From a virus: DNA of 55,859 nt. This document shows positions 3,212-49,598 of this stretch, in pieces. The notes beneath the pieces are model-generated. The model did not search any database. It had not been told where the DNA came from and was given only the letters and a program-made list of their open reading frames with translations. Both the position numbers and the translations under genes were made by a program. Within the stretch, counting starts at the first letter, position 1. Each line of letters opens with the position of its first letter. The stretch is taken from positions 1 through 55,859 of IMG/VR virus record IMGVR_UViG_3300045988_012935; one strand, written 5' to 3'.

Positions 3212-3439
3212 ATGAAATTTACAAAATTCATTAAGCCAGAACTTGAACAAATCAAAGAAAATGCCAATTTCACGGAAGAAGAGGAGAGGATTTTCTCTCT
3301 TCTCTGCCGTGGTTTTTCACAAAAGCAAATATCCACAAAAGAAAACCTATCACTAAGAACGATAGAGTACAGAGTGAGAGATATAAAAGATAAAATAGAA
3401 AGAACGGGGGTATTTGATTGGATGAAAAAGAACTGTTGA
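3212..3439 (+). CDS. Small HTH regulator, LuxR / sigma-70 region-4-like
   Basis: EEEERIFSLLCRGFSQKQISTKENLSLRTIEYRVRDIKDKI resembles the GerE/LuxR-type HTH. Confidence 0.55.
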   Translation: MKFTKFIKPELEQIKENANFTEEEERIFSLLCRGFSQKQISTKENLSLRTIEYRVRDIKDKIERTGVFDWMKKNC

Positions 3440-4635
3440 AATATGCCGTTGATAGTGGTATTCTCGACATAGCACTTGTGCAAGAACAAGTTGAAATGAA
3501 CAAAAGAGAAAAGATACTAAAGAAACACCCATATGATATATGGGAAGGGAAAGATGGGTATTGGAGAACCTATATTTCATGCAAGGAGAAAGGGAGAAAG
3601 CTACTTAAGAAAAAAGATAGGGTCGATATTGAAAATGAGGTTATCGATTATTTACAGATTCAAGAAGAAAATCCAACCATTGATGAAGTGTTTGAAGAGT
3701 GGAACGACAGGCGGTTGGCACTGAACAAGATTGGAAATGCAACGCACCAAAGGAATCGCAACTTTTATCAAAGGCACTTTAAACAAATGGGTAAAAGGCG
3801 CATAAAATCAATATCGGAAGATGAATGGGGAGATTTCCTTGAAGAGCAGATTCCGAAGTTTAACTTGACGGCAAAGGCGTTTTCCGGACTAAAAGGGATA
3901 ACCAAAGGGTTTCTGAAACGAGCCAAAAAGCGGAAGTTGATTGATTTTAATGTTGAAGAATTGTTTGAGGAGCTTGATACATCTGATTCCGATTTCAAAC
4001 GAACGATCAAGGAAGATTACGAAGAGGTTTTTGACGAGAATGAAACTGATATTATGATTAAATATTTGGAATGCAACCTTGATTTATCAAACATAGCAAT
4101 ACTTCTAATGTTCGTGACCGGAATGAGAATAGGAGAGGTTGTGTGCCTAAAACATGATGATTTTGACGGTAATACGGTCAAGGTTCGGCGAACCGAAACA
4201 AGGTATCGTGGAGAGGATGATGCAAAATATACGGTTGCGATAAAGGATTTCCCAAAGACGAGAGCTGGGGCAAGAACAATTATCATCCCAAAGGACTACG
4301 AGTGGTTGTGTGATAGGATCAGAAAAACGAATCCATTTGAAGAATTTGTGTTCATTAAAGAAAATGGAGAGCGCTTGAATGCGAATTGTGTAAGAATGCG
4401 ATTACAGAGATTGTGCGATAAGTTAGGAATCTATCGAAAGTCTCCACATAAGATCCGAAAGACATACGGAACCATCCTTCTTGACAACAATATTGACGAG
4501 CGGTTGATCCTTGGTCAGATGGGGCACGCAAGCCTAGGAACTACAGAGGAACACTACCACAGGAACCGCAGATCTATCGAGAAAAAGTCAGATATTTTAA
4601 GTAGTATACCAGACTTCAAAGCACGAACAAGTTAG
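3418..4635 (+). CDS. int: Tyrosine recombinase / phage integrase
   Basis: C-terminal catalytic pattern: ...MRIGEV..., HKIRKTYGT, GHASLGTTEEHYHR (R..H-x-x-R..H/Y). TTG start at 3418; alternative ATG at 3496. Confidence 0.9.
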   Translation: MDEKELLKYAVDSGILDIALVQEQVEMNKREKILKKHPYDIWEGKDGYWRTYISCKEKGRKLLKKKDRVDIENEVIDYLQIQEENPTIDEVFEEWNDRRLALNKIGNATHQRNRNFYQRHFKQMGKRRIKSISEDEWGDFLEEQIPKFNLTAKAFSGLKGITKGFLKRAKKRKLIDFNVEELFEELDTSDSDFKRTIKEDYEEVFDENETDIMIKYLECNLDLSNIAILLMFVTGMRIGEVVCLKHDDFDGNTVKVRRTETRYRGEDDAKYTVAIKDFPKTRAGARTIIIPKDYEWLCDRIRKTNPFEEFVFIKENGERLNANCVRMRLQRLCDKLGIYRKSPHKIRKTYGTILLDNNIDERLILGQMGHASLGTTEEHYHRNRRSIEKKSDILSSIPDFKARTS

Positions 4636-4753: not shown

Positions 4754-4803
4754 TTCAGAAAACCGCATAAAATCAAGGTTTTCTATAGATTAGGGGAAAG
4801 AGA

Positions 4804-4834
4804 GTAATCAAAAAGTAATCAAAAGGTAATCAAA
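4804..4834. repeat. attP arm-type repeats (P-prime arm): GTAATCAAA x3
   Basis: gtaatcaaa at 4804, 4815 and 4826; an inverted partial copy tgattac at 4905-4911. Confidence 0.7.
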
Positions 4835-4923
4835 AAAGGCTCGGAAGCCTTGATTATACTAAAGAAAGGAGTTTCTTGTACAAGTGCTAAAAGTTAATTG
4901 AATATGATTACTATGGAAGTTTG

Positions 4924-4946
4924 GACGCATTGAGCGTCTTTTTTTT
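4924..4946 (+). terminator. Rho-independent terminator
   Basis: GACGC-attga-GCGTC followed by T8. Confidence 0.6.
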
Positions 4947-5023
4947 ATGCGGTTTTTCTGCTTATTTTTTGCGGAAGAACCGTATTTTTTTATGCAAAAA
5001 TATAAGCATAGGAGGGATGCGGA

Positions 5024-10438: not shown

Positions 10439-10477
10439 GTTGTTTTCCTCGATTTCTGTACTTTATTTGATACTTGT

Positions 10478-10506
10478 ATTATATTAAATATAAGGCACAA
10501 AATCAA
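10478..10506 (-). promoter_or_regulatory. Leftward sigma-70-type promoter with an operator box in the spacer
   Basis: On the - strand: TTGATT-17 nt-TATAAT; the spacer contains the reverse complement of TATAAGGCACAAAA. Confidence 0.6.
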
Positions 10507-10612
10507 TTGACATAATATACAAAATATAAGGCACAAAACATAATTTTGCTTGTGAAATATGTATAAGGCGCAAAACCGCATGAAACATTATATAAGGAAA
10601 GAAAACTTTTCC

Positions 10613-10641
10613 TTGACTTATAAGGCACAAAACATTATAAT
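10613..10641 (+). promoter_or_regulatory. Rightward promoter of the RHH gene, box in the spacer
   Basis: TTGACT-17 nt (tataaggcacaaaacat)-TATAAT. Confidence 0.7.
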
Positions 10642-10672
10642 GATAGCAAACAGAGAAAGAGAGGTTCGAAGC

Positions 10673-10864
10673 ATGGAACGTAAGACAACAGAAGCAACAC
10701 GGCGCGCAATCTATAGATATGATGATAAGTTTGAGCGTGTTAATTGCAGATTTGCAAAAGGAACAAAGGATCGCATAGAAAAGCTTGGATACAAGAGCGC
10801 AAACGACTTTATTAAACTTGCAGTCGCGGAAAAGCTGGAGCATGACGAAAAAATCTTGAAATAA
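10673..10864 (+). CDS. Ribbon-helix-helix (Arc/CopG-like) DNA-binding protein
   Basis: AGAGAGG RBS, ATG 10673; KTTEATRRAIYRYDDKFERVNCRFAKGTKDRIEKLGYKSANDFIKLAV resembles RHH fold proteins. Confidence 0.5.
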   Translation: MERKTTEATRRAIYRYDDKFERVNCRFAKGTKDRIEKLGYKSANDFIKLAVAEKLEHDEKILK

Positions 10865-10878
10865 GGCACAAAAAACTA

Positions 10879-10907
10879 TTGACATATAAGGCACAAAATG
10901 TTATAGT
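10879..10907 (+). promoter_or_regulatory. Second rightward promoter, box in the spacer
   Basis: TTGACA-17 nt (tataaggcacaaaatgt)-TATAGT. Confidence 0.65.
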
Positions 10908-11932: not shown

Positions 11933-12670
11933 ATGGGAGAAAAACGAAAATATACAAAAGCGGAAGATCTTGTCGGGACAACTTACAAAGGCTTTAAAGT
12001 TTTGGATTGCAAAAGGGAAAACAGACGATCTTTTTTACAAGTAGAATGCCCTTATTGCAAAAAAATTAAATGGATTCGCAAAGATCAACTTGACGATCCA
12101 CACCGCAAGGGATGCGGATGTTTAATGGCAAAGACACAATTTAAGCAAAAGGATTTAGCAAGAGAAAGATTTGGGCGGCTGGAAGTAATAAAGGCAACCA
12201 GCGAGCGCGATCCACACAATGGATCTGTTATATGGCTATGTCGGTGCGACTGCGGAAAGTTTAAAAAAGTATCTGCCAGCTCTTTAAAAAACGGAGGCGT
12301 AGCAAGCTGTGGGTGCCTTGGCAGGGAAAATAGTTCAAAAAATGGGAAGATTTACGGCAAAAAAATAGTAGATAATTATTGCATTGCCGGAACAAATGTA
12401 AATAATTTAACCGCAAAAATTCCAAAAAACAATAAATCTGGTCATAAGGGTGTGCATTGGAATGCAAACAAGGGCAGATGGATAGCGCAAATTGAATTTA
12501 TGGGAAAACATTATAATTTAGGGAGTTTCCAAGAGAAAGAAGATGCGATAAAAGTAAGAGAGGAAGCAGAAAAGAAAATGTTTGGCAATTTTCTGGAGTG
12601 GTACGCGGAAACGTTCCCGAACGCAAAGAAAAATATTAAAGACAGAGAAAAAGCGAGTGGGAAAGATTAA
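11933..12670 (+). CDS. AP2-domain DNA-binding protein with N-terminal repeated Cys motifs
   Basis: GHKGVHWNANKGRWIAQIEFMGKHYNLGSFQEKEDAIKVREEAE matches the AP2/ERF-type pattern; CPYC...GCGC and CRCDCG...CGCLG repeats. Confidence 0.65.
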   Translation: MGEKRKYTKAEDLVGTTYKGFKVLDCKRENRRSFLQVECPYCKKIKWIRKDQLDDPHRKGCGCLMAKTQFKQKDLARERFGRLEVIKATSERDPHNGSVIWLCRCDCGKFKKVSASSLKNGGVASCGCLGRENSSKNGKIYGKKIVDNYCIAGTNVNNLTAKIPKNNKSGHKGVHWNANKGRWIAQIEFMGKHYNLGSFQEKEDAIKVREEAEKKMFGNFLEWYAETFPNAKKNIKDREKASGKD

Positions 12671-12831
12671 GCATCTGACCCACTCGTTTTCATTATTCGA
12701 AATGCTATTGTTTCAATCCGTGGCCGCCGGAATCGCTGGCGGCACCGCATCGGCAAGCATCCATGCCGTGCGACTTGTCTATACTCTATCATCAGATCGG
12801 ACAAAATGCAAGTAAATATTTTCAAACAAAG

Positions 12832-12860
12832 GGTAGCTTTTCCGGCTGCCTTTTCTTTTT
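12832..12860 (+). terminator. Rho-independent terminator
   Basis: GGTAGC-ttttccg-GCTGCC followed by TTTTCTTTTT. Confidence 0.5.
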
Positions 12861-13013
12861 GCCATATCCAAAATCGACAACGCGTCCGGGCATATCTTAC
12901 AAAATCTCTGAAAAACTGTAAACAATCTATAAAACTTTTCTTAAATTTTTATAAACAAGGCTAGGTTTGTCAGGTCTTTGATAAGTCCCAAAATGATAGA
13001 ATAGTATCAGTTT

Positions 13014-13100
13014 TGTTGCAATGCAACATACTTGCAACACCAATGCAACAAAGTGCAACATTTTTGCAACGTAGATATAGAGTAAGAGATAGAGTATATT
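13014..13100. repeat. Intergenic iteron cluster (second copy of the origin module)
   Basis: TGCAAT/TGCAAC at 13017, 13022, 13033, 13044, 13054 and 13065 (spacing 5, 11, 11, 10, 11), then GTAGATATAGAGTAAGAGATAGAG; collinear with 50916-50999. Confidence 0.8.
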
Positions 13101-13309
13101 CTCTGTTGTTATATTTATATATATTATTAAGGGTTTAAAATACAGTATATACAAAACCTATAGATGTATTGTAAGTGTATAGACGCATGCGCGCAGTGTA
13201 AGTATATATACTCACTGTCTCTAAGTTGTGAAAACTTTTTATTGACTTTAAACCCAAAAATAGTGTATACCAAAAGCAGAGAGATTAACAGATTGGAGGT
13301 GTGAAATAT

Positions 13310-13984
13310 ATGCAGGATGTAGAAAACGTAGATATTACAAGACTTATAGTGGATCTGGGCACAGTACAAATATATACATCAACTGTACAAGATTTAATAG
13401 ACAACGCTTGTATAGAATTTCACATTGACGATCTTTTAAAAGCTGGACAGAGACAGTGGAAAGCTGTTATGCAGTATGTTGGTATGCATCTATTCCCGGA
13501 TACGAAAGTATTAAAGGACAAGAGTTTAAGTCCTCTTAACAATGGGACTATACCGACTAACTGTAATAGGTATGATAGAGAGGTATTATATAAACTCTGT
13601 GATTATTATATATACATCTCCAATGTGTACAGCAAGTTGGTGAGTACAGTAGCATTTAGTTATTTTTGTAATATACCTACTACAACATTTGACCTATGGA
13701 AAGACGAGGAATCAAGTTCGGTGGCTTTTAAGATTTGGCAAAAACTGCAACGATCTCGTAAGGATTGCATCCTAGATCGTGCATACGACTCCAATAGCCC
13801 GGTAGGCACTATGTTCGTAGGAAACAACGAGTTCGGCATGAATCAGCCGGGAATTGGCGATAATGCCACCCAGCGCAAGGCAATCACAGCGCAGGAGCTG
13901 CCAAGGCTGGACGAGAAAAAGGGCCAAGAATTGCACGCAATTGATACACAATTTGTCGGTGTGGCTGCAAATAATACAGTTTAA
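13310..13984 (+). CDS. Putative terminase small subunit
   Basis: GGAGGTG RBS, ATG 13310; the central region (YKLCDYYIYISNVYSKLVSTVAFSYFCNIPTTTFDLWK...NNEFGM) resembles TerS families from memory; it lies upstream of TerL. Confidence 0.4.
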   Translation: MQDVENVDITRLIVDLGTVQIYTSTVQDLIDNACIEFHIDDLLKAGQRQWKAVMQYVGMHLFPDTKVLKDKSLSPLNNGTIPTNCNRYDREVLYKLCDYYIYISNVYSKLVSTVAFSYFCNIPTTTFDLWKDEESSSVAFKIWQKLQRSRKDCILDRAYDSNSPVGTMFVGNNEFGMNQPGIGDNATQRKAITAQELPRLDEKKGQELHAIDTQFVGVAANNTV

Positions 13985-14043
13985 ATTGTGTGTGATTATT
14001 CTACAATTCACAAATGCAGTAATACCAAGGGTTGCAGCGTTTT

Positions 14044-14088
14044 AACTATTCGTGAACTATTCGGAAAAGTGGAGTTAAGCGAATAGTT
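14044..14088. repeat. Direct plus inverted repeat of AACTATTCG (hairpin)
   Basis: aactattcg at 14044 and 14055, cgaatagtt at 14080. Confidence 0.6.
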
Positions 14089-15598: not shown

Positions 15599-15669
15599 TG
15601 GGCTATCGCCAAGCGGTAAGGCACAGGATTTTGATTCCTGCATTCCGGGTTCGAATCCCGGTAGCCTAA
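15599..15669 (+). tRNA. tRNA-Gln (anticodon UUG)
   Basis: Hand-folded cloverleaf: acceptor TGGGCTA/TAGCCTA (U1-A72 as in bacterial tRNA-Gln), anticodon arm CAGGA-TTTTGAT-TCCTG, T-arm CCGGG-TTCGAAT-CCCGG; near-collinear with E. coli tRNA-Gln. Confidence 0.85.
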
Positions 15670-15896: not shown

Positions 15897-15967
15897 GATC
15901 GGTTAGTCGAGCGGTAAGACACCACCCTTTCACGGTGGTAACACGAGTTCAAATCTCGTACCGGTCA
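15897..15967 (+). tRNA. tRNA-Glu (anticodon UUC)
   Basis: Acceptor GATCGGT/ACCGGTC, D-loop AGCGGTAA, anticodon arm CCACC-CTTTCAC-GGTGG, T-arm ACGAG-TTCAAAT-CTCGT. Confidence 0.8.
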
Positions 15968-15973: not shown

Positions 15974-16045
15974 TGGGATTTAATTCAGTGGTAGAAGACA
16001 CGGCTTATATCCGGGTTGTCGCGGGTTCGATTCCTGCAATCCCAA
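15974..16045 (+). tRNA. tRNA-Ile (anticodon UAU, reads AUA)
   Basis: Acceptor TGGGATT/AATCCCA, D-loop AGTGGTA, anticodon arm CACGG-CTTATAT-CCGGG (one A-G mismatch), T-arm GCGGG-TTCGATT-CCTGC. Confidence 0.7.
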
Positions 16046-17841: not shown

Positions 17842-18020
17842 AAATAATCAAAGAAGGCAGCCTTAGGTACGAAAGAAAACCTTTAAAGTTTGAGTGTAAG
17901 AATTGCAAAACCGTTTTTGAAGCGGAAAAGACTGAATATGAATATTGTGGAGATCAAAGGGAAGGCGATAACTACAAGTGTGAATGCCCATTGTGCCACA
18001 AAATGGTATATTACAATTAA
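17838..18020 (+). CDS. Zinc-ribbon protein
   Basis: ATGA overlap; CKNCKTVF...CECPLCHKMV. Confidence 0.5.
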   Translation: MKIIKEGSLRYERKPLKFECKNCKTVFEAEKTEYEYCGDQREGDNYKCECPLCHKMVYYN

Positions 18021-18114
18021 AAGACAACCGGCTAACAAATGGAGTAGTCGCTACCCTAAAACAGTTATAGGCAGAGGTCAAGGCACTTCTGCTTTTTGCG
18101 GAGGTGCTTTTTAT

Positions 18115-19905
18115 TTGGCTTCAAAGCAGTTAATCAATGCAGTAAATGGATATGAAAATTACATACAGAGAAAAGGCGTTGATGAACAGGTAATAGATGC
18201 CCTTTTGAAAGCGTGCAATGTGGCAATTCGGACGGAAAAAGACGTTGACTACGGATTGGCTATAACAGAAAGAACAAAGTCTTTAATCAACGAATATACG
18301 CAGAAAAACGCGGGCGGTAGCATATGGGAACTTGAACGATATGCGCAGAATCATGACATTAAAGGCGGATACAAACTTGTGGATCAGTTCTATGAAGTCT
18401 TGCGGTTAGAGAGCTTTTATCGTTTCGAGAGCTTCATCTACTTTATGGAGCGCAAAAGAAATTGGAGTAAACGGTTTTATTATCCACGCCGCAAGACGCT
18501 GAATATAGTCGCCCACGATCTTGAAGATTTGGAAAACCGGAAGATTAAATTTTACGGATTGTCAATGCCATCGCGTGTCGGTAAATCGACTATCTGTATT
18601 TTCTTCCTTGCGTGGGTAGCTTTGCGCAGACCAAACAGTCATAGTGCTATGGGCGGTCACTCCGGTATTTTGGCAAAAGGATTTTACAAAGAACTGATGA
18701 ATCTTTTTACCACGGAAGAATATACGTTTGCTGAACTTTTTACTTATTGGCATCCGGAATATGCAAACACAACACTTCCGACAGACAAGAGCGCGGATGA
18801 ATTTACGATCACGCTTGGAGATCCGGACAGATTCGCAACCGTAACGTGCCGTGGTATTGATGGAACATGGACAGGAGCGGTCGATGTTTCAGAAGACGGA
18901 TATTTATATGTCGATGACTTGGTTCGTGATCGTGAACATTCATTAAGTCCTACTCGAATGAAAAACACATACCAAGAGTACCTAAACAAGATGGTTGACC
19001 GTAAAAATGACGGTGCAAGGGAATTGATGGTCGGTACTCTTTGGAATGTTTTAGATCCATTGGAGCGCATGAGAAAGCAATATGAGCATGATCCACAATA
19101 CCGATTCCGTAAGATTCCGGCACTTAATGAAAATGACGAAAGCAATTTTGCGTATGAAATCAAAGGATTTTCCACGGAATACTATCGGGATATGCGCGAT
19201 AAGCTTGATAATGCCGAATGGATGGCTAAGTTTATGCAGCAACCATATGTCCGCGAGGGATTGCTTTATACTGATTTGAGACTATTTAACGGAATCCTAC
19301 CGGACGGAGATTTCCGGCGCATCGGAGTTGTGGATGTCGCCTGGGGTGGCGGCGATAGCTTGTCAATGCCGATTGGGGCAGAATATGAAAACGGTGATGT
19401 TTATATTTACGATTGGGTATTCAACAAAGGCCCGAAAGAGGTAACAATCCCTCTTGTTGTTGGACGAATTATCGGGAATGAGATTAGGCAGACAAGATTT
19501 GAGGGAAATACCGGAGGAGATCTGTATTGCAAATATGTAGATGAAAAGTTGCAGGCGCAGGACTATAAATGCTCGTGCACAAGCAGAAAAGCACCAAACA
19601 ATGTTGAAAAGTTATCGAAGATCATAGCATATTCCGGTGATGTTAAAAGAAAATTCATATTTCTTGATACGCACCGACCTACGCAGGAACAAATGAAGAA
19701 AGATTCAGATCTTGGAGTAACAAGATATTACAGAAATGACGAATATCAAGCGGCTATGGATGAACTCTCTATGTTTGTAAGTATTGGCGGTAATGACCAC
19801 GACGATGCAGCAGACGGTTTAACTCAGCTTGAAATGTTTATAGAAAACCCAAACAATACCGCAAAAGTAGAAGCGGCAGTACACCCATTTAGGAGGTATT
19901 TTTAA
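18115..19905 (+). CDS. terL: Terminase large subunit
   Basis: Walker-A-like GLSMPSRVGKST, later DDLVRD, C-terminal nuclease-like VDVAWGGGDS. The frame is open from 17890; the proposed TTG 18115 is preceded by GGAGGTG (start uncertain). Confidence 0.8.
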   Translation: MASKQLINAVNGYENYIQRKGVDEQVIDALLKACNVAIRTEKDVDYGLAITERTKSLINEYTQKNAGGSIWELERYAQNHDIKGGYKLVDQFYEVLRLESFYRFESFIYFMERKRNWSKRFYYPRRKTLNIVAHDLEDLENRKIKFYGLSMPSRVGKSTICIFFLAWVALRRPNSHSAMGGHSGILAKGFYKELMNLFTTEEYTFAELFTYWHPEYANTTLPTDKSADEFTITLGDPDRFATVTCRGIDGTWTGAVDVSEDGYLYVDDLVRDREHSLSPTRMKNTYQEYLNKMVDRKNDGARELMVGTLWNVLDPLERMRKQYEHDPQYRFRKIPALNENDESNFAYEIKGFSTEYYRDMRDKLDNAEWMAKFMQQPYVREGLLYTDLRLFNGILPDGDFRRIGVVDVAWGGGDSLSMPIGAEYENGDVYIYDWVFNKGPKEVTIPLVVGRIIGNEIRQTRFEGNTGGDLYCKYVDEKLQAQDYKCSCTSRKAPNNVEKLSKIIAYSGDVKRKFIFLDTHRPTQEQMKKDSDLGVTRYYRNDEYQAAMDELSMFVSIGGNDHDDAADGLTQLEMFIENPNNTAKVEAAVHPFRRYF

Positions 19906-20496: not shown

Positions 20497-20688
20497 ATGA
20501 AAAAAGTAACTATATATTGCCCGGATTGCGGAAGAATTGCCGGACATTACGATGGAAGATCTACGATAGATCATCCGTGTAAATGTAAAAAATGCAATCA
20601 TATTGTGATTTATCGCGTGGCAACAGGCAAAGTTGAAACAAAGCCGATACCAAAACGCGCTTGCAGTAGTGGAGTTTTATTTATATGA
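20497..20688 (+). CDS. Com-like zinc-ribbon small protein
   Basis: IYCPDCGRIAGHYDGRSTIDHPCKCKKCNHIVIY has the CxxC-16-CxxC layout of Mu Com-type proteins. Confidence 0.4.
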   Translation: MKKVTIYCPDCGRIAGHYDGRSTIDHPCKCKKCNHIVIYRVATGKVETKPIPKRACSSGVLFI

Positions 20689-22142
20689 ATACACAATATT
20701 TTCATGACCTTGTAAAAGGCAGATACGGAAGAAAAATTGCATATGCTAACGTAGAACAGATTACGGCAGACAATATCAAAAAAGTTGTCGGAAACTGCAT
20801 TGGTGCATTTTATTTCAACAAGACGGTCATTCGGTATCTGTGGAACTATTACAAGGGCGATCAGCCTGTATTGTACCGAACAAAGATACAGAATGCGGAT
20901 ATAACCAATAAGGTGTCTGAAAACCATGCCTATGAGATTGTTCAATTCAAGGTTGGCCAGACTTACGGTGAGCCAATTCAGCTTATCAGTAGGAAAGACG
21001 ATGATCGTATAAACAATGCGGTTGATGAATTTAACGATTATCTTACCGATGCTAATAAGCAGGAAAAGGACATTAAGGCAGGAGAGTGGCAATCGGCAAC
21101 CGGAACGTCATTTAAGGCGGTGCAGTTTGCAAATGGAGATATACCATTTAGAATTGTCGCACCAACACCAATGAATACATTTGTTATTTATAATGAATCC
21201 ACAGAAGAACCACTTTTAGCAATCCAAGAACTTAAGGATGCCGATGGACAGATGTATAAACTCTGCTACACGGACTCTTACGAGTGCAAGATTGTGAACG
21301 GAGAGGTTCGAGATTGGAAACTGCATGGCTTTGGCGGGATCCCAATTGTTGAGTTTCCGAACAACCATGAGCGCATTTCTGACGTTGAGCTTGTGATCGG
21401 ACTATTGGATGCAATCAACACAATGCAGTCAAACCGAATGGATGGCGTTGAGCAGTTTGTTCAGTTTTGGATAAAGTTTGTAAATTGCGACATTGACCCG
21501 GAAACCTTTGAAAAAATGAAGATTTCCCATGCGCTTACGGTAAAATCCAACAATGAGCAGAATAAATCAGATGTTGATATTATGACACAAGAGTTGAATC
21601 AAACAGAGTGCCAAGTTGCAAAGGATGATTTGTGGAATAATGCACAGTCCATTCTTGCTATACCAAATAAGAACAACAATAATTCCGGTGGAGATACACA
21701 GGGAGCGGTTGAACTTAGAAACGGATGGGATTTCTCAAAGTCGAGAGCCAAACTGAAAGACCCAATCGTAAAGTCGGCTGAAAAAAGGCTTGCGAAAGTT
21801 GTTTTGAATGTAATTCGTATACAAGATCACGATTTGGGATTGAGTTTGCGAGACTTTGATGTTCAGATTAACCATAGCCCACAAGACAATATGTACACCA
21901 AGTCACAGACCCTATATCAGCTTTTACAAGCTGGTATTCATCCACTTGTGGCAATTAAATCTGTCGGACTTTGGGGAGATGCAGAAAAGACATTCCTGTT
22001 GTCGAAGCCATACTTGGATAATCTGTGGAAAACGATTGACGATGTAGAAGCGCAGGAGAAAAAGGCACAAGAATTGATAAATAAAATGAATACAGATGGC
22101 ACACAGAGCCAGACAAACAAAGATAAGACAGTCACCGAGTAA
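20685..22142 (+). CDS. Portal protein (SPP1 gp6-type)
   Basis: 485 aa directly after the packaging genes; YLWNYYKGDQPVLYRTK...NKVSENHAYEIVQFKVGQTYGEPI region typical of SPP1-type portals. Confidence 0.8.
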   Translation: MNTQYFHDLVKGRYGRKIAYANVEQITADNIKKVVGNCIGAFYFNKTVIRYLWNYYKGDQPVLYRTKIQNADITNKVSENHAYEIVQFKVGQTYGEPIQLISRKDDDRINNAVDEFNDYLTDANKQEKDIKAGEWQSATGTSFKAVQFANGDIPFRIVAPTPMNTFVIYNESTEEPLLAIQELKDADGQMYKLCYTDSYECKIVNGEVRDWKLHGFGGIPIVEFPNNHERISDVELVIGLLDAINTMQSNRMDGVEQFVQFWIKFVNCDIDPETFEKMKISHALTVKSNNEQNKSDVDIMTQELNQTECQVAKDDLWNNAQSILAIPNKNNNNSGGDTQGAVELRNGWDFSKSRAKLKDPIVKSAEKRLAKVVLNVIRIQDHDLGLSLRDFDVQINHSPQDNMYTKSQTLYQLLQAGIHPLVAIKSVGLWGDAEKTFLLSKPYLDNLWKTIDDVEAQEKKAQELINKMNTDGTQSQTNKDKTVTE

Positions 22143-33828: not shown

Positions 33829-34629
33829 ATGAAAAAATCACAACTTATGCTTAAGATTCAAAACGGCATTAAGGTATTTGAGAATCCAATATTCGGACAG
33901 ATTAGAATGACCATGGTCGATGATGAACCGATGTTTTGCCTTGTTGATGTTTGCAGGGCATTGGAAATGTCAAACAGCCGTATTGTTGCTGATAGACTAG
34001 ACGAGGATGAACGACGTAAGTTAAACTTACCCCGTCAAGGAGAAACTTGGTTTGTTACTGAATCCGGCTTATATGCGGTTATCGTTCGGAGCGATAAGCC
34101 GAATGCCAGGAAGTTTCGCAAGTGGGTAACATCAGATGTTCTCCCTACAATCCGTAAAACAGGTGGGTATGTCAATAATGATGAATTATTTATTTCCACT
34201 TACCTACCATATGCAGATGAAAACACTAAGCTGATATTTTCCCAGACATTAAAAACTGTTAGGGAGCAGAACGAAACCATTAAAAGGCAGAAGAAAGAAA
34301 TCATCCATAAGGAAGATGTTATTATCGGGCTTGTTGATGATATTGACTTGGCAACCAAGAGACAGCGGATAACGCAGATTGTCCGTTTCGGTGCCGATGG
34401 AAAGTATCAAGAACGCTATTCATTGCTTTATGGAGAATTTGAAAGGAAATATCACTGCAACCTTAAATCAAGGATGGAAGGGTGCACACTCAAACCGAAA
34501 GTAAGAAACAAGATGGATTATATCGACAGGGAAATGGGAATGATTCCGCAGTTGTACGAAATCGCTTGCAAACTTTTTGAAAACGATGTAGAAAAGCTGA
34601 AATCTGAATGGGAATCAGTAGTAGCTTAA
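33829..34629 (+). CDS. Bro-N domain protein (antirepressor-like), moron in the tail module
   Basis: FENPIFGQIRMTMVDDEPMFCLVDVCRALEM...FVTESGLYAVIVRSDKPNARKFRKWVTSDVLPTIRKTGGY. Confidence 0.75.
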   Translation: MKKSQLMLKIQNGIKVFENPIFGQIRMTMVDDEPMFCLVDVCRALEMSNSRIVADRLDEDERRKLNLPRQGETWFVTESGLYAVIVRSDKPNARKFRKWVTSDVLPTIRKTGGYVNNDELFISTYLPYADENTKLIFSQTLKTVREQNETIKRQKKEIIHKEDVIIGLVDDIDLATKRQRITQIVRFGADGKYQERYSLLYGEFERKYHCNLKSRMEGCTLKPKVRNKMDYIDREMGMIPQLYEIACKLFENDVEKLKSEWESVVA

Positions 34630-35117: not shown

Positions 35118-37377
35118 CAGTTTGAAAGAAAAGTATTGGGATTCCGCGACAGATAAACAGATGGTCATATCTGTTGTTGGAACGAATCAGAAAATAGACA
35201 ATTCGATGCTTGAAATCGGTACGTTTGCGCTCGAAGAAAGTCTTTGTTCGGAATCTGAATTAAAGTTTGGAGCGTGCGAAGCGAATTGTGTAAAATTCAC
35301 AGCACGAAACACCGCAGGAAACATTATTGGAAAGACAATCTCTATCGAAGAAACGATTGACGGAGATAGCAAAAATCCGATGCCATACGGAGTTTTTAAG
35401 GTGGCATCCGATGTTCCTACGGCTGACCGTACAAAACGTCAGATTACGGCATATGACGCAATGTATGACATTATCAATACAGACGTAAAGGCTTGGTATG
35501 CAGGACTTAGCTTTCCAATGACATTAAAGAAGTTCCGGGATAGCTTCTTTACGCATCTTGGAATTGCTCAAGTTGAAATAAGCCTTGTCAATGATTCCAT
35601 GACGGTCAATAAGACGATTGTAGCCACGCAGACGGACGATTCAAGCGCGGTAACAGAAGAGTCCTCTATCAGCGGAAAAACGGTTGTAACGGCAATCTGT
35701 GAGATTAACGGATGCTTTGGTAACATCAATCGAGATGGAAAGTTTGAATATGTATTTCTGAAAGCAATTACAAGCGCACTTTATCCGCGAGAAGATTTGT
35801 TCCCGTCAGATGATCTGTTCCCAAGTGATGCAAACACGGAGTCCATGACCGGGCATTATATTACGTTTGATTATGAGGATTTCCAGTCACAGGCAATCAC
35901 ACAGCTTGAAATCAAGACAAGCAATGATAATGCCGGTGCTATTGTTGGAACTGCCGGAAACAACTATTCGATTACAGGAAACTTTCTTGTATCAGACAAG
36001 ACCGGAGCAGAGCTGGAACAGATTGCAAATAACCTATTGCCGATTATGAAACAGGCAGCATACACACCGATTAAAAGTTGCACTTGCGTCGGCAATCCAT
36101 GTCTGACACTTGGCGAACCCATCCGGTTCAATACCACAAGAGAGATTGTTGAAACGTATCTGTTGCAACGCACCCTAACCGGAGTACAAAGCAAGCGAGA
36201 TTCAATCTCGGCACAGGGCACACAGACGCACTCCGCAAAGGTTAATTCTATCAGAGATACGATTGAAAGCGTGGAAAGACGTACCGGAAAGTTAGAGAGG
36301 AACGCAGACCATCTTCAATCCACGTATGAGGATTTAGAGGACCAGACAAATACCAAGTTTGAGCAGACCGCAAATAGCATTTCCGCAGAAGTCGATCGTG
36401 CGCAAAAAGCGGAAGGGCAATTAGACGCATCATTAGAATTGAAGTTAGGCAGAGATGAGAACGACCAAGTTGTTTCTATGATTAACGCAAGTGCAGACCA
36501 AATTGTGTTGCGAGGAAACAGATTGATTGTAGAATGTAGCAATTTCGAGCTGGACGCTCTTGGACGAGCACATATAGTAGACTCTCTGCTTTTTGACAGT
36601 GGCGATGCATATGGGGTAGAGATATTAGGGCATGACGGAAGAAATAATGCGCTATTGCAGAATGTTATGTTGGACTTGTCATCTGTTACTGACGCAAATG
36701 GGGATGCCATAGGGGATCATGCGAGTACGGCAGATTATGCAACAACCGCAGGAAGCGCAACAACCGCAGAAAGCGCAGAGAGGGCGAGGGAGTGCGTAAA
36801 TGCATCAATCGCATATTATTTACAAGGCATTGGAATAAGTGATTATGTACATATTTCCGGCAACGGAAATTTAATTCCAAGCTCTAGTTCTGTGTACTGT
36901 GGAACTAACCCCAACCCATTTGCCGGAGGGTATTCTTCCGGTGGTTGGAAAACAACGTCTGACCGTAGAAAGAAAAAAGATTTCCGGAAACTGTTAGAGG
37001 ATGATCGGTTTGAGAGATTTTTCGAGTTGCTACAACCGATGAAATATCGGCTCATAGAAAATGACGATAAAATGCACATTGGATTTGTTGCACAGGATGT
37101 CGAACAGGCAATGACGGATTGTGGCATATCTGAAAATGAGTTTTACGGATTGGAACATGCGGTATTATCCGAAAAAGATTTTGAATCTAATGAGGAATGG
37201 GAAAAATTCTTAGAGCAGAATGGTGGCGCAAATGATATGTATACGCTGTGCTACCAAGAATTTATTGCTTTAAATACTGCCATGATACAGAAATTGCAGA
37301 ACAGATGCAACGATTTTGAACGCAGACTATCCGCGTTAGAAAGGAAGTGGTCAGATGGCATATCAGAAAATCTATAG
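35107..37377 (+). CDS. Tail-associated protein (Tal-like) with a C-terminal intramolecular chaperone (peptidase S74) domain
   Basis: About 757 aa; C-terminus GGWKTTSDRRKKKDF...MHIGFVAQDVEQAM...YTLCYQEFIALNTAMIQKLQ matches the self-cleaving chaperone domain of tail fibres/spikes. Confidence 0.65.
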   Translation: MINSSLKEKYWDSATDKQMVISVVGTNQKIDNSMLEIGTFALEESLCSESELKFGACEANCVKFTARNTAGNIIGKTISIEETIDGDSKNPMPYGVFKVASDVPTADRTKRQITAYDAMYDIINTDVKAWYAGLSFPMTLKKFRDSFFTHLGIAQVEISLVNDSMTVNKTIVATQTDDSSAVTEESSISGKTVVTAICEINGCFGNINRDGKFEYVFLKAITSALYPREDLFPSDDLFPSDANTESMTGHYITFDYEDFQSQAITQLEIKTSNDNAGAIVGTAGNNYSITGNFLVSDKTGAELEQIANNLLPIMKQAAYTPIKSCTCVGNPCLTLGEPIRFNTTREIVETYLLQRTLTGVQSKRDSISAQGTQTHSAKVNSIRDTIESVERRTGKLERNADHLQSTYEDLEDQTNTKFEQTANSISAEVDRAQKAEGQLDASLELKLGRDENDQVVSMINASADQIVLRGNRLIVECSNFELDALGRAHIVDSLLFDSGDAYGVEILGHDGRNNALLQNVMLDLSSVTDANGDAIGDHASTADYATTAGSATTAESAERARECVNASIAYYLQGIGISDYVHISGNGNLIPSSSSVYCGTNPNPFAGGYSSGGWKTTSDRRKKKDFRKLLEDDRFERFFELLQPMKYRLIENDDKMHIGFVAQDVEQAMTDCGISENEFYGLEHAVLSEKDFESNEEWEKFLEQNGGANDMYTLCYQEFIALNTAMIQKLQNRCNDFERRLSALERKWSDGISENL

Positions 37378-38089: not shown

Positions 38090-38884
38090 ATGGCTATAGC
38101 AGGAAGAGTAGCAATTGTGCCAAAAGGAGATTGGAGCGCAGAGACGGAGTATAAGAGACTTGATGAGGTAACATATAATAACACAATGTTCATAGCAAAA
38201 AAAGCTGTGCCGAAGGGGACGTTACCCACAAATGCAGAATATTGGTCGAAATCGATTGTGGGCGGTGTCGGTGCAATCGCAACAACAGAGGAAGCCGGAA
38301 TTGTAAAACCGGACGGAAAAAGCATGAGCGTAGATGAGAGTGGAACGCTTAGTATTAACTTGGATGGAACCACAATTACATTAGATGAAGCGAAAAACGT
38401 CATAAAGTTGGCGGATACATTAAAGGATAAAATCGGAAGCGCACTGCAACCGGAAAGTATCGTAAACAACCAGATCACCACAGTGGAAGGCTTCGCACTT
38501 GACGCACGACAGGCAAACCCTAATCTGGATGGTACGCTTGCAAAGCAGGTAGCTGATTTAAACGGCAGTTTAAATCTATGCGTAAAACAATTTACGATTC
38601 CAGTAAATGAAAGTATTGCAATTCCATGTTTAAACTGCATTATTTTCTATAACGGAAGTAATGCAAGAACATTCAGCATTGCAACAACTATCGGATATGC
38701 CTCCGATACTATTCGTAGTAGAATATCGTATATAAATGGCGATGAATCAAATGGGTTAAAATTGTCATATTCAGAAGAAGGGACACGTGATGCTTGGTTA
38801 GGCATTTTTAAAATTGAAAACACTAATACTATCAATGTAGCAAGAATTGCTGTTATTGGAATAAAAAACTTTAGTTTAATGTAA
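38090..38884 (+). CDS. Tail fibre / receptor-binding protein (putative)
   Basis: N-terminal PKGDWSAETEYKRLDEVTYNNTMFIAKKAVPKGTLPTNAEYW motif common in fibre proteins; last structural ORF. Confidence 0.5.
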   Translation: MAIAGRVAIVPKGDWSAETEYKRLDEVTYNNTMFIAKKAVPKGTLPTNAEYWSKSIVGGVGAIATTEEAGIVKPDGKSMSVDESGTLSINLDGTTITLDEAKNVIKLADTLKDKIGSALQPESIVNNQITTVEGFALDARQANPNLDGTLAKQVADLNGSLNLCVKQFTIPVNESIAIPCLNCIIFYNGSNARTFSIATTIGYASDTIRSRISYINGDESNGLKLSYSEEGTRDAWLGIFKIENTNTINVARIAVIGIKNFSLM

Positions 38885-39021
38885 CGTCTTACTTTTTTAG
38901 AGGTGCTTGAATTTAAAACTCATGCCATGAACTTTTATTATAAAAATACATTTTACTAAAGGCATACCGAACCTTATTAAAAGGAAAATGGAGCGATTGG
39001 AAAACTCTTAATTTTTAAAAT

Positions 39022-39267
39022 TTATACTATTTTTCTTATTAATTTAACGCTTCCATTCATATATACCCAATAATTAAAGCAATAATTATCGCTACCTGCA
39101 TAGGAGTCGAAATCGTATTCTATTACAGTCGCAGTTGTTTGACTGCGATCAATTATATTAGTTGTGTAATATCCACCACTATATCGTATAGTAGCAATGA
39201 CCTTTTCTCTGATACTCAATTGTTCGACTACGGCTTTGATACTCTCTGATCTTCCCGCGTCATCCAT
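39022..39267 (-). CDS. Hypothetical 81-aa protein on the opposite strand
   Basis: ORF track; lies in an AT-rich gap between + strand genes. Confidence 0.35.
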   Translation of the reverse strand: MDDAGRSESIKAVVEQLSIREKVIATIRYSGGYYTTNIIDRSQTTATVIEYDFDSYAGSDNYCFNYWVYMNGSVKLIRKIV

Positions 39268-39374
39268 TTTGACATTAGCGTCATAGAATTTTGTTTTTAC
39301 AAAATTCTTATTTAAACTGCCGTTTAAATAAGTTTAGTAACCCGTAAATTTACACATAGAAAGGAATAAAAATC

Positions 39375-39755
39375 ATGGACAAAATTATTTTGAAAAACAA
39401 AACAGAGTTCGAGATTGCTGAAGGAGCGAGTCTCAGCAATATTCGAATTCAGTCAAAATCTTTTGACGAAATCAAGACAATTACAGATGCCTTTTCGGCG
39501 GAAAATATCTCTAAGGTCACATTTGCGCATAATAATCAGGCTTCCGGAGAGTACACGAATCTCAAATGTGAAAACTTCTCCTATGTGCCAAATGTGGGCG
39601 AGGATGGCACAGAAGATGGCACATATACCGTAACGGTCAGCTTGAGAACAAAGACGGAAATGGAAAAGGCAATTGATGAGCTTAAAGCAGGACATGAAGC
39701 AAATGCAGAAGCAATCGAAGAACTGGCAAGCATTGCCGCAGGAAGTGAGGTGTAG
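39375..39755 (+). CDS. Hypothetical protein (XkdW-position)
   Basis: ORF track; AAAGGAATAAAAATCATG. Confidence 0.5.
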   Translation: MDKIILKNKTEFEIAEGASLSNIRIQSKSFDEIKTITDAFSAENISKVTFAHNNQASGEYTNLKCENFSYVPNVGEDGTEDGTYTVTVSLRTKTEMEKAIDELKAGHEANAEAIEELASIAAGSEV

Positions 39756-41749: not shown

Positions 41750-42520
41750 ATGAACGAATTACAGATTTTCAATAATGAAGAGTTCGGAGAAGTCCGAACC
41801 GCAGTAGTAAATAGCGAGCCGATGTTTTGCTTGGCTGATGTTTGCAAGGCGTTGGGGTTGTCGCAACCGTCAAAGGTAAAGGAGAGATTAAACCCAAAGG
41901 GTGTGAATACTATTCCTACCCCTACAAATGGTGGTGAACAAAATCTTCTTTATATTAATGAAAGCAATTTTTACAAGGCAGTATTCCAAAGTCGAAAAGA
42001 GAGCGCAGAGAGATTTACAGAATGGGTAACATCAGAGGTTCTTCCGTCAATCCGTAAGAATGGCGGTTACATAGCAGGGCAGGAAACCTTGTCTGATGAA
42101 GAATTGCTTTCCAAGGCACTTATGGTGGCACAACGAAAGATTGACGAAAAGAACAACATCATTGCCATGCAGGACTCACGAATCCAAGGAATGATACCTA
42201 AAGAGATTTTCGCTGATGCGGTATCAGCAAGTCATACATCAATCCTCATCGGAGATTTAGCAAAGCTGATTTGTCAGAACGGTGTGCAGATAGGGCAGAA
42301 GCGGTTGTTTGAGTGGTTGCGAGAGAATAACTTCCTTATTAAAAGCGGTACTTCTAGGAACATGCCAAAACAGAGATATGTGGAGCAGGGATTGTTCGAG
42401 GTTAAGGAAAGCAACATTCAGAATCCGGACGGTTCAGTAAGAATCACAAAGACAACGAAAGTTACCGGAAAAGGACAGGTTTACTTTGTAAACAAGTTTC
42501 TGAAAGGAGCATGGGAATGA
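41750..42520 (+). CDS. Antirepressor (Bro-N domain plus ANT-like C-terminal domain)
   Basis: FNNEEFGEVRTAVVNSEPMFCLADVCKALGL...FTEWVTSEVLPSIRKNGGY; paralogous N-domain to 33829..34629. Confidence 0.75.
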   Translation: MNELQIFNNEEFGEVRTAVVNSEPMFCLADVCKALGLSQPSKVKERLNPKGVNTIPTPTNGGEQNLLYINESNFYKAVFQSRKESAERFTEWVTSEVLPSIRKNGGYIAGQETLSDEELLSKALMVAQRKIDEKNNIIAMQDSRIQGMIPKEIFADAVSASHTSILIGDLAKLICQNGVQIGQKRLFEWLRENNFLIKSGTSRNMPKQRYVEQGLFEVKESNIQNPDGSVRITKTTKVTGKGQVYFVNKFLKGAWE

Positions 42521-49245: not shown

Positions 49246-49256
49246 AAGGAGAAAAG

Positions 49257-49462
49257 ATGAAAAAAAGGAACAAAGTGCAGAGTTATTAGTGATGATTATG
49301 GGTTTTTTAAACCGGGAGAAATCGTTGTTACATTAGAAACCGATGATGTGCCATATTGCGCAAAAGAGTCGGCATATTCTCCGAAAAAAAGCACTTAGCA
49401 GTTATAAATTAAGCGATTACAGTTCTTTAACAGAAAGTGAACTTGAAGTAATTGAAGAATAA
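49257..49462 (+). pseudogene. Small ORF broken by two +1 frameshifts, each at an A7 run
   Basis: ATG 49257 plus A7 (49260-49266) stops at 49287. The +1 frame reads CRVISDDYGFFKPGEIVVTLETDDVPYCAKESAYSPKK until A7 (49384-49390) and a stop at 49396. The next +1 frame reads ALSSYKLSDYSSLTESELEVIEE to 49462. A6 at both sites gives one 67-aa ORF. Confidence 0.5.
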
Positions 49463-49556
49463 CTAGGTTGAAACACCGGCTGAAAAGCGAAAGAAACCAT
49501 TCTAACGCATGGCGAATAATAGTTATCACAAGCTTATTGTAAGCCATTGATTACTT

Positions 49557-49582
49557 GGCGGCATATCCCCCTATATGCCGCC
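49557..49582. promoter_or_regulatory. Perfect 10-bp hairpin GGCGGCATAT-ccccct-ATATGCCGCC
   Basis: Read directly; 17 nt upstream of ATG 49599. Confidence 0.5.
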
Positions 49583-49598
49583 TACGGAAGAAAAAATT

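Follow-up and report, generated by a model that had tools for sequence, protein, structure and literature searches.

Positions 13015-13175 of the window (the whole 55,859-nucleotide stretch of phage DNA that was analysed) probably constitute a second locus at which the phage's replisome organizer binds, matching that protein in repeat type and built like a replication origin. The first-pass annotation had taken this region for a duplicate of the origin module belonging to the organizer, in a two-site layout like that of phage SPP1; covariation of the repeats with the organizer, the origin-like anatomy of the site and a direct comparison with SPP1 all support that reading.

The first copy of the module lies within the organizer gene, in the following setting:

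50540-51343, plus strand: replisome-organizer gene (PF09681, phrog_5968, TIGR01714)
50917-50999, plus strand: internal repeat array and purine box, in the linker between the organizer's two protein domains
50984-51043, no strand assigned: low-stability DNA beside the internal array (nearest-neighbour energy)
51340-52656, plus strand: DnaB-type replicative helicase gene (PF03796, PF00772)

The identity proposed earlier for the organizer gene is borne out by its matches to PF09681 (E 2.5e-20, 73.1 bits against a cut-off of 23.3), phrog_5968 and TIGR01714 (94.6 bits against a cut-off of 49.8) and by the DnaB-type helicase gene immediately 3', which overlaps the organizer stop in the gene call taken from an identical contig (L780). 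The type B and C organizers of relatives, described below, pass the TIGR01714 cut-off as well. No loader gene was found between organizer and DnaB in the ORF list, with Pfam profiles or in the identical contig, and a fold search of the organizer against solved structures gave no match. The protein divides into an N-terminal domain of type A (50540-50884) and a C-terminal domain resembling that of the B lineage (51044-51343). In the PF09681/TIGR01714 family, which includes organizers of the lactococcal TP901-1/Tuc2009 type, the usual place of the origin is within the organizer gene. The internal array opens with a head-to-head pair (50917-50929) and continues with a degenerate CGCAAA at 50935, TGCAAC at 50945 and 50955 and TGCAAT at 50966; it is kept in 80 of 80 type A organizer loci. 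The purine box that follows (50972-50999) consists of GATAGAG repeats encoding an E/D/I/K-rich low-complexity linker peptide, and the adjoining 50984-51043 ranks sixth among the non-overlapping 60-nt stretches of the genome, within the least stable 0.16% of positions.

The distant copy stands in a 630-bp non-coding region with these elements:

12828-12864, plus strand: intrinsic terminator with an 11-bp stem and T tail, closing the upstream HNH-endonuclease unit (terminator scan)
12990-13014, plus strand: conserved anchor, AAAATGATAGAATAGTATCAGTTTT (alignment of relatives; weak promoter-scan matches)
13015-13070, plus strand: distant iteron array with six exact TGCAAC sites
13071-13098, plus strand: purine-rich GATAGAG-type box, GTAGATATAGAGTAAGAGATAGAGTATA, collinear with 50972-50999
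13099-13175, no strand assigned: AT-rich, easily melted DNA, candidate unwinding element (18-22% GC; nearest-neighbour energy)
13242-13271, plus strand: second promoter-like element, TTGACT-N18-TATACC (read from the sequence; kept in B-type relatives)
13301-13984, plus strand: ORF13301, the first ORF after the site, 227 aa, weakly terminase-small-subunit-like (weak BFVD fold matches)

The two copies are collinear, as had been claimed for 13014-13098 and 50916-50999: a global alignment gives 63 of 87 positions identical, with both blocks on the plus strand. The same head-to-head pair, GTTGCA-A-TGCAAC, opens each block (13015-13027 and 50917-50929), and four further TGCAAC-type sites follow at 10-11-bp spacing in both arrays. 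Of the six TGCAAC hexamers in the distant array, one is on the minus strand (13015-13020) and five are on the plus strand (13022, 13033, 13044, 13054 and 13065), so that the pair is followed by four direct sites with spacings of 11, 11, 10 and 11 bp; at 10-11 bp apart, the direct sites are predicted to present themselves on the same face of the helix. A recount of the tails behind the arrays, GTAGATATAGAGTAAGAGATAGAGTATA and GTAGAGATAGAGAAAGATATAGATAAAG, returned the earlier figure of 21 of 28 identical. The window is a circular assembly (1-55 is identical to 55805-55859) and the distant copy lies 17.9 kb downstream of the internal one across the junction, in the same orientation, which bears out the approximate 18 kb given before. 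The duplicate of the internal module is real and beyond chance. The local alignment score between the two blocks is 40, while the best other 200-nt stretch of the genome reaches 18, and the six TGCAAC sites within 60 nt at the distant block compare with a maximum of three in shuffles (n=200); the hexamer occurs 69 times genome-wide against 35 expected. A third copy suggested at 10.65-10.95 kb by a long-query alignment was rejected as a gapped, purine-rich low-complexity match with zero TGCAAC sites.

The surroundings of the distant array resemble those of an origin. Its purine box is free of coding constraint, whereas the counterpart in the organizer gene encodes the linker, and a GATAGAG-type box is also present in the A- and C-type distant copies of relatives. 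Beyond it lies the DNA that is easiest to melt: by nearest-neighbour energy, the least stable 60-nt stretch of the whole genome is 13110-13170 and the least stable 100-nt stretch starts at 13075. The very AT-rich segment described earlier as 13100-13300 is confirmed for about 13090-13180 (18-25% GC) and not for its whole length. On the left, the terminator at 12828-12864 forms the edge of the non-coding region and is kept in aligned relatives. The anchor contains an extended -10-like element, TGATAGAAT (12994-13002), with a possible -35 TTGATA at 12978-12983, and differs at 0-3 of 25 nt across A- and B-type relatives while the adjacent sequence diverges. It may be a promoter, in which case transcription would run directly into the repeats. 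The idea that the anchor belongs to a repeated promoter class was dropped, there being one exact copy in the genome and mismatched copies at the chance level. The second promoter-like element, just 5' of ORF13301, resembles 10601-10631 (repeat family D18); it was missed by the consensus promoter scan, and we regard it as a promoter with low confidence. Rfam searches of the whole window, with a permissive run on 12500-13400, returned three tRNAs at 15.6-16.0 kb and no intergenic RNA, and the GC and AT skews over the genome display a monotonic coding-strand bias without an origin signal.

Relatives provide evidence for a connection between the two sites. Three types of organizer N-terminal domain occur in related contigs, accompanied by TGCAAC (type A), CGTCTGAC (type B) or GTGAC repeats (type C). 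The concern that the block might be missing from related genomes is answered by its conservation at the same position, where relatives with the other organizer types carry CGCTGAC-class CGTCTGAC or GTGAC repeats between conserved flanks. Internal and distant repeats resemble each other within each of these types, as AATCGTCTGACGTCGCTgTTTCAGA against AATCGTCTGACGTCGCTtTTTCAGA in type B and as a nearly identical segment of ~40 nt in type C. The type of the distant block equals that of the organizer in 36 of the 37 contigs typed at both places (22 A/A, 12 B/B, 2 C/C and 1 mismatch), a fraction that overstates the independent support, the concordant pairs coming mostly from a few lineages; counted as independent events, about three speak for matching and one against. 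Three of the B/B pairs were found through the integrase, independently of the repeats. In the exception, IMGVR_UViG_3300029481_000280, the organizer is of type B but the distant block of type A; there is no overlap between the two loci, and ~13 kb of the genome is absent between the contig ends. Unless this assembly is chimeric, matching of organizer and distant block is not obligatory, and it may not be absolute. Conserved hexamers with variable spacers were discarded as evidence, the loci having been retrieved with patterns that fix the hexamer. No close relative was found among GenBank phages.

The window itself is a mosaic in which two small patches of type A interrupt a B-type genome:

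50529-50991, plus strand: A-type patch in a B-type replication module, comprising N-domain and internal repeats (breaks in nucleotide homology)
12990-13135 (approximate), plus strand: exchangeable A-type cassette with the repeats, the purine box and the greater part of the AT-rich DNA (B-type surroundings)

At the organizer locus, B-type homology (91-94% nt) spans 49001-50528, with short gaps, and 50992-52732 but is absent between them, where the patch is 88% identical to the A lineage in nucleotides and 100% in amino acids over the organizer N-domain. Against the B lineage the organizer C-domain is 79-80% identical in amino acids, against the A lineage 59%; for the DnaB-type helicase the values are 98% and 56%. 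At the distant locus, 12705-14088 aligns to B-type contigs (85% overall), while A-lineage contigs match the window only at 12990-13130 (79%), the anchor forming the left recombination boundary of the cassette. The six-site subtype (L446) comes closer, with 93% over 12990-13210, and L720 matches 12990-13130 at 97%. Likeness to the B lineage extends to the hydrolase (98%), the GIY-YIG protein (up to 95%) and ORF13301 (up to 97%). A type C counterpart of this double patch is present in contig 45988_036654, so that in two independent mosaics N-domain and distant cassette have been swapped together. Because the N-domain patch differs from its nearest A-type relatives at 12% of DNA positions yet is identical in protein, the swap in the window appears to be old, with the pair still matched. 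These short cassettes, ~125 bp and ~460 bp, probably set replication specificity. A further idea, that the GIY-YIG protein encoded just 5' of the organizer is an origin-directed nuclease with an organizer-like DNA-binding domain, for which ICP1 Odn is a precedent (PMC8263062), was abandoned when BLASTP against the type A and B organizers gave no similarity.

The exchange data also bear on the gene downstream. The earlier statement that a putative TerS gene follows the site holds as far as an ORF lies at 13301-13984; its naming as TerS does not go beyond weak fold matches. ORF13301 gave no match to Pfam, PHROG or NCBIfam, none in a PDB fold search (AlphaFold2 model, pLDDT 68) and, alone or as an alignment, none among GTDB representative genomes in a host search. 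In BFVD a 'DNA-packaging protein' (E 1.3e-6) is among the matches, as are several proteins bearing the name terminase small subunit (E 3.5e-3 to 0.14), at TM-scores of just 0.28-0.45; TerL begins at 17890, 3.9 kb beyond the ORF. Repeats directly 5' of such an ORF, with an HNH endonuclease gene upstream as in many packaging modules, could be a pac site bound by a small terminase encoded just downstream, and in the SPP1 record gene 1, for the small terminase, opens the genome, where the main pac cleavage is placed (PMC6316719). The window, however, joins A-type repeats to a B-type ORF, whereas phages of the A lineage have the identical repeat type with an ORF just 29% identical, and that repeat type recurs inside the organizer gene. 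More broadly, the repeats accompanying B-type ORFs can be of type A, B or C, and A-type blocks stand before three unrelated or distant versions of the ORF (up to 97%, 29% and 22% identity). The repeats thus track the organizer type rather than the downstream ORF and do not co-vary with the small terminase, which argues against a TerS or pac role and leaves it very improbable. A coding origin of the pattern is scarcely conceivable: the ORF list has minus-strand frames of 75 and 80 codons at 12927-13154 and 13127-13369, in which the repeats would represent a repetitive peptide, but gene callers predict nothing there on identical or related contigs, and both the replacement of the whole cassette in relatives and differences by 11-bp units break any frame. 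The type B repeat number by itself, which ranges between 1 and 5 and changes in units of 11 bp, is incompatible with a reading frame.

A transcriptional operator deserves more attention, although we consider it unlikely. The organizer or another regulator would block or switch transcription into ORF13301 and the packaging genes, linking late expression to the level of organizer. Such a role agrees with the array beginning ~12 nt past an extended -10-like element conserved in the A and B lineages, with the terminator just upstream, with a TATAAT-like element shortly 5' of the block in the type C contig 078048 and, if the organizer is the regulator, with the covariation; the start of the array so close to the -10-like element suits an operator no less than an origin. 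The promoter is only putative, however, and another promoter-like element lies nearer the ORF; the swapped cassette includes the purine box and AT-rich stretch, and an operator would not need a full collinear origin architecture beside the least stable DNA of the genome. Such regulation would in any case be compatible with a role in replication. It is more improbable still that the copy is functionless or nearly so, produced by gene conversion or carried along by module exchange, with matching reflecting mainly shared ancestry. The few lineages behind most concordant pairs, the one mismatched contig and the ability of Streptococcus phage PH10 and gut phage MT835520 to do without a second copy would fit this explanation. 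It accounts poorly for a position kept in three specificity types and beside three or more versions of the gene that follows, for two independent mosaics with small patches at exactly both places, 18 kb apart in a different backbone, and for an old swap (88% DNA, 100% protein identity in the patch) that is still matched.

We return to the favoured reading, a second organizer-binding locus. The type A N-terminal domain of the organizer would recognise the TGCAAC hexamers, occupying the palindromic pair and the four direct sites, one helical turn apart, along one face of the helix, and melting would begin in the adjoining DNA, the easiest to melt in the genome. Since the organizer's C-terminal domain travels with the DnaB-type helicase, it would be expected to bring the helicase in. 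The distant copy lies behind a terminator and a promoter-like element and heads the gene block that leads to the terminase. By analogy it most likely works like SPP1 oriR. Initiation could take place there as well, or a complex of organizer firmly bound to the site could stall forks arriving from the internal origin, so that circle-to-circle replication switches to concatemer synthesis. Provided that the organizer binds there, a rough split would favour no role outright: an active origin comes slightly ahead of a fork barrier or switch, and a looping or control partner of the internal origin follows somewhat behind.

SPP1 offers the closest parallel in layout. Its oriL is a repeat array with an AT-rich stretch within gene 38, in the linker after the DNA-binding domain, as in the window phage, and the gene 38 repeats have a collinear counterpart in oriR, which occupies about 4790-4970 in the interval separating genes 7 and 8 (in the SPP1 sequence, 4848-4970 aligns to 35909-36043 with a score of 51). 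The second copy lies downstream in non-coding DNA among late genes, in the same orientation, at a distance of roughly one third of the genome (12.9 of 44 kb in SPP1 and 17.9 of 55.8 kb in the window), and each phage encodes a DnaB-type helicase and a RecT-type annealing protein. SPP1 gp38 is reported to bind both sites, and for oriR the proposals are a second origin or a barrier to forks that sets off the theta-to-sigma switch (PMC6316719, PMC3485210). The window thus shares with SPP1 an array in the organizer gene, a collinear same-strand non-coding copy and, by composition and stability, AT-rich DNA by each array. It lacks a gp38-homologous organizer with a gp39-type loader: the SPP1 organizer G38P belongs to PF09524, not PF09681, and BLASTP against the window organizer finds no similarity, while the gp39-type loader of SPP1 has no counterpart gene in the window phage. 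SPP1 is moreover virulent and the window phage temperate, and oriR follows the portal gene and gene 7, whereas the window site precedes the terminase genes. The likeness to SPP1 is one of design and not of descent, as far as the sequences can tell, and this suggests that a layout with two sites evolved on more than one occasion and is of use.

Phages with organizers of the window's own family are alike at the internal site. PH10 and MT835520 have a PF09681 organizer with internal repeats in a low-complexity linker, as does the window phage, and the PH10 module is strikingly similar in form, with GTTACAATGTAAC, GTAAC repeats and then GGAGATATAGAGATAGAG. No second copy of the repeats was found anywhere in either record, so that the distant site belongs to the gut-phage group and not to the PF09681 family generally; the papers searched likewise contained no report of a second site for the PF09681/TIGR01714 family. 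Auxiliary repeat clusters kilobases from the origin are known from satellite phage P4 (ori and crr) and from the iteron plasmids P1 (incA) and R6K (gamma, alpha and beta); P4 crr is a required partner and P1 incA a control element, acting in cis through initiator-mediated pairing or looping. P4 crr and P1 incA resemble the distant block in being a separate cluster of the initiator's repeats, but the initiators of P4, P1 and R6K belong to families unrelated to the window organizer and their clusters lie a few kilobases away, against 18 kb here. In lambda, origin repeats and an AT-rich stretch lie within the O gene, between the DNA-binding and helicase-recruiting domains, and transcription through or near ori-lambda activates the origin; lambda, however, has a single origin without a distant duplicate, and its proteins are unrelated to those of the window phage.

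It is possible, and we suggest it tentatively from the exchange pattern, that the distant site is the third part of a portable specificity module that is obligatorily exchanged together with the N-domain and the internal repeats. If so, the double-patch mosaics would be the first comparative-genomic evidence of an oriR-like site selected to match its organizer, and the second site would have a real role in the phage cycle, such as a fork stop starting concatemers in front of the packaging genes, and would not be a spare origin that the phage could do without. Work on a second origin bound by the organizer has centred on SPP1, and there the function of the site is still given as a proposal (PMC6316719, PMC3485210). 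The SPP1 two-site design would here recur with an organizer dissimilar in sequence, in an abundant family of temperate phages, with roughly 300 full-length contigs, whose hosts are Lachnospiraceae of the human gut. Three natural alleles, co-exchanged mosaics, one natural mismatch and a known host group provide test material for the role of the second site, and specificity cassettes of this kind would bear on the incompatibility of co-infecting phages and on gut-phage engineering.

The temperate lifestyle follows from the integrase together with prophage contigs:

3418-4635, plus strand: tyrosine integrase gene (PF00589 on homologues)

The integrase stands at a prophage end beside bacterial genes in L781, whose integrase is identical to that of the window, and in other contigs, indicating from these junctions that the phage inserts into the genome of a Lachnospiraceae bacterium, where queH and argH adjoin the prophage; Roseburia faecis is the label on one integrase variant. 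The same genome was found in another sample and 119 blocks of the collection have an index entry for the integrase, so the genotype is viable and widespread. The integrase gene sits about midway between the two repeat sites, and in the contigs obtained for P0119 and P0126, all of them integrated prophages, the two sites lie at opposite ends of the prophage.

The intergenic block 3' of the HNH endonuclease gene repeats, in order and spacing, an array that lies inside the replisome organizer gene. The features concerned are:

11933-12670, HNH endonuclease gene, upstream of the distant block
12828-12864, strong terminator, 3' of the HNH endonuclease gene
12990-13014, 25-nt anchor with an extended -10-like sequence (TGATAGAAT), stopping one base before the repeats
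49951-50553, GIY-YIG nuclease gene, directly upstream of, and overlapping, the organizer gene
50540-51343, replisome organizer gene (PF09681, phrog_5968, TIGR01714)

The distant array (13015-13070) contains six exact TGCAAC sites, one of them inverted to form the pair GTTGCA-A-TGCAAC, with four more direct sites spaced 11, 11, 10 and 11 bp; shuffled sequence yielded at most 3 sites per 60 nt. The pair recurs at 50917-50929, where it is followed by CGCAAA, TGCAAC, TGCAAC and TGCAAT at matching spacing, and a GATAGAG-type purine box (21 of 28 positions identical) continues both arrays. The duplicate, collinear iteron module described in the first-pass annotation, including the likeness of the tails (to 13098 in the distant copy), is thus confirmed: the blocks are identical at 63 of 87 positions, with a local alignment score of 40 versus 18 or less elsewhere in the genome. 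Bases 1-55 recur at 55805-55859 as an exact 55-bp terminal direct repeat, which makes the window a circular assembly of ~55.8 kb (true length 55,804 bp), and across its junction the blocks lie 17.9 kb apart, in agreement with the ~18 kb first estimated. AT-rich DNA follows the distant repeats and purine box, and by nearest-neighbour energy the least stable 60-nt and 100-nt stretches of the genome start at 13110 and 13075, respectively, while 50984-51043, beside the internal array, ranks sixth.

No close relative was found among GenBank phages, and relatives were collected from IMG/VR by organizer (212), by ORF13301, the ORF at 13301-13984 3' of the distant block (290), and by RecT (244). In the 80 closest by ORF13301 (91-97% amino acid identity) the intergenic region has conserved flanks. 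Where the window has its TGCAAC block, 79 of them carry, at precisely that position, type B repeats (CGTCTGAC, one to five copies at 11-bp spacing), and the remaining one (L112) carries a type C block, with GTCAC/GTGAC repeats. Type B organizers differ from that of the window in the N-terminal half while their C-terminal domain is very similar, and at the equivalent position of their linker they have AATCGTCTGACGTCGCTGTTTCAGA, essentially the end of the type B intergenic block. Likewise, a run of about 40 nt in the organizer gene (L566) of type C contig 45988_078048 recurs nearly unchanged at an intergenic site (L555). The TGCAAC array is kept in all 80 A-type organizer loci, and in A-type genomes the same anchor precedes a TGCAAC block, with an ORF13301 homologue of only 29% identity downstream. 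The six-site block of the window with its right flank to ~13210 is 93-97% identical in L446, L688, L697, L698, L720, L765 and L775, phages in which the ORF that follows has only 22% identity to ORF13301; the cassette of the window probably came from this group.

Among contigs typed at both places, 22 were A/A, 12 B/B, 2 C/C and one mismatched. Three B/B pairs were retrieved via the integrase, whose position is midway between the two arrays, and were thus sampled independently of the repeats. Since many pairs share ancestry, mosaic genomes are more telling than this tally, and the window is itself such a mosaic.

Closest relatives of window segments by identity
Hydrolase: type B, 98% (A lineage 51%)
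GIY-YIG gene: type B, up to 95% (absent from the A lineage, present in B-backbone genomes)
Organizer C-domain: type B, 79-80% (A lineage 59%)
DnaB: type B, 98% (A lineage 56%)
ORF13301: type B, up to 97% (A lineage 29%)
Patch 50529-50991, N-domain and internal repeats: type A, 88% nucleotide, 100% protein
Patch ~12990-13135, distant cassette: type A, 79% to the A lineage, 93-97% to the six-site subtype

Contig 45988_036654 shows the same double patch in type C, with a type C organizer (L603) and the L112 block upstream of a B-type ORF13301 in a B backbone, and contig 066549 has an A N-domain and A block along with a third kind of C-domain and a downstream ORF of another version. What the block follows is thus the organizer N-domain and not the adjacent gene, which argues for its recognition by the organizer. 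Together with typed alleles, these mosaics form an informative natural experiment. The GIY-YIG nuclease showed no similarity to the type A or type B organizer proteins with which it was compared. The organizer (window 50540-52656; loci L281-L360) is modular, with N-domains and C-domains of at least three types each. The C-domain type pairs with the product encoded beside it, in the window a DnaB-type helicase directly 3' of the organizer gene, and among relatives either a DnaB (98% or 56% identical) or, in prophages such as L774 and L797, an IstB/DnaC-like loader, as expected if the C-domain contacts the helicase.

We consider it probable that the distant block is a second organizer-binding locus with origin anatomy, acting in replication in the way proposed for SPP1 oriR; it would serve either as a second initiation site or as a complex that arrests forks and thereby promotes concatemer synthesis dependent on RecT. 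The promoter-like anchor adjoining the repeats would also suit a transcriptional operator, a role that is compatible with one in replication and to which we give a small chance. That the block is a nearly neutral copy, kept alike by gene conversion, is somewhat less probable still and fits poorly with its conserved position and with the double patches. A pac site bound by the small terminase is very improbable, being contradicted by the tracking of the N-domain rather than ORF13301, and a coding region can practically be dismissed because type B copy number changes in 11-bp units.

The sole mismatched contig, IMGVR_UViG_3300029481_000280, lowers confidence in the replication reading, in that matching of organizer and block may not be obligatory. 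It combines a B-type organizer and helicase (L301) with an A-type six-site block (L720) that is 97% identical to that of the window and lies upstream of yet another ORF type; no B-type repeats were found near the L720 block. Its ends correspond to ~54.2 kb and ~11.8 kb of the window, so that ~13 kb is lacking, and the contig could have arisen by recent module recombination or by chimeric assembly. In prophages carrying the integrase that adjoins this six-site block in L775, every organizer is A-type, suggesting that A/A is the normal state of this group.

In SPP1, oriL lies inside gene 38 and oriR is intergenic, 12-13 kb away; each has direct repeats together with an AT-rich unwinding element, gp38 binds both, and for oriR a role in stalling forks and setting off the switch to concatemer synthesis has been proposed (PMC6316719, PMC3485210). 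On the SPP1 sequence, 4848-4970, located between genes 7 and 8, is collinear with the gene-38 linker repeats (~35910-36045) and has their orientation (alignment score 51), and the window shares this collinear, same-orientation two-array design. However, gp38 lacks PF09681 and has no similarity to the organizer of the window, which also lacks a gp39-type loader; the likeness is thus one of functional design and not of family membership. As far as sequence goes, the SPP1-like two-origin layout first proposed is supported, here in a gut phage group and in a protein family without detectable similarity to the SPP1 organizer. Very similar internal modules, with a palindromic pair and GTAAC-type repeats ahead of GATAGAG repeats, occur in other PF09681 organizers, those of Streptococcus phage PH10 (L682, 5309-5529) and of gut phage record MT835520 (L680/L681, reverse strand, ~38817-39400). 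No second copy was found in either record, and the literature searched held no report of a second site for the PF09681 family.

The phage is found integrated, and in the prophage form each site is close to a different end of the element, one end being marked by

3418-4635, tyrosine integrase gene

to which some relatives add another, shorter integrase gene immediately upstream. The same genome was recovered from another sample (L780, 99.99-100% identical over 21 kb). The exact integrase lies at a prophage end on a 200-kb bacterial contig (L781), preceded by 10 kb with the gene order of the window and an identical organizer, and adjoins queH, argH, asd and a gene for a topoisomerase. This argH shares 88-91% identity with its counterparts in MAGs of Lachnospiraceae, Agathobacter and Roseburia, and a near-identical integrase on a 2-Mb contig is labelled Roseburia faecis. 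At the integrase-bearing prophage ends (L781, L774, L776-L779, L785, L789, L792, L793, L797) the insertion site of the family adjoins an HD-domain gene, queH and argH, in genomes of Lachnospiraceae (Roseburia/Agathobacter-like).

Downstream of the block, ORF13301 is separated by MazG, three tRNAs and small ORFs from the large terminase and portal genes. In order, these features are:

15599-15669, 15897-15967 and 15974-16045, tRNA genes (Rfam), between ORF13301/MazG and the terminase
17890-19905, large terminase
20685-22142, portal

The first-pass annotation named ORF13301 a putative TerS. Among predicted viral structures, its predicted model (pLDDT 68, moderate confidence) hits a 'DNA-packaging protein' at E 1.3e-6 and, at E 3.5e-3 to 0.14, several small terminase subunits, all with low TM-scores, while no family match (Pfam, PHROG, NCBIfam) or PDB match was found; TerS is thus a possible but tentative assignment from the modelled fold.

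Upstream of the block, a conserved GC-rich non-coding stretch of ~150 nt (12705-12860) forms hairpins (GTGGCCGCCGGAATCGCTGGCGGCAC...) and has the terminator at its end. Several relatives share it, among them L677, in which gene calls place nothing of HNH size upstream; L675 lacks it, and Rfam gave no match. The stretch could be a small RNA or, alternatively, a remnant of the mobile HNH unit or its 3' element. A promoter-like unit, TTGAC(T/A)TATAAGGCACAAAA(C/T)(A/G)TTATA, is present in several copies at 10477-10905 (repeat families D3 and D6), and 13230-13260 resembles it. The copies fall in the sole region with minus-strand ORFs (~8.6-10.9 kb) and reversed GC skew, probably a lysogeny or early regulatory switch. 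Elsewhere, 34123-34169 and 42023-42069 (47 nt, 81% identical; ORFs 33829-34629 and 41750-42520) suggest a protein domain common to two otherwise separate genes.
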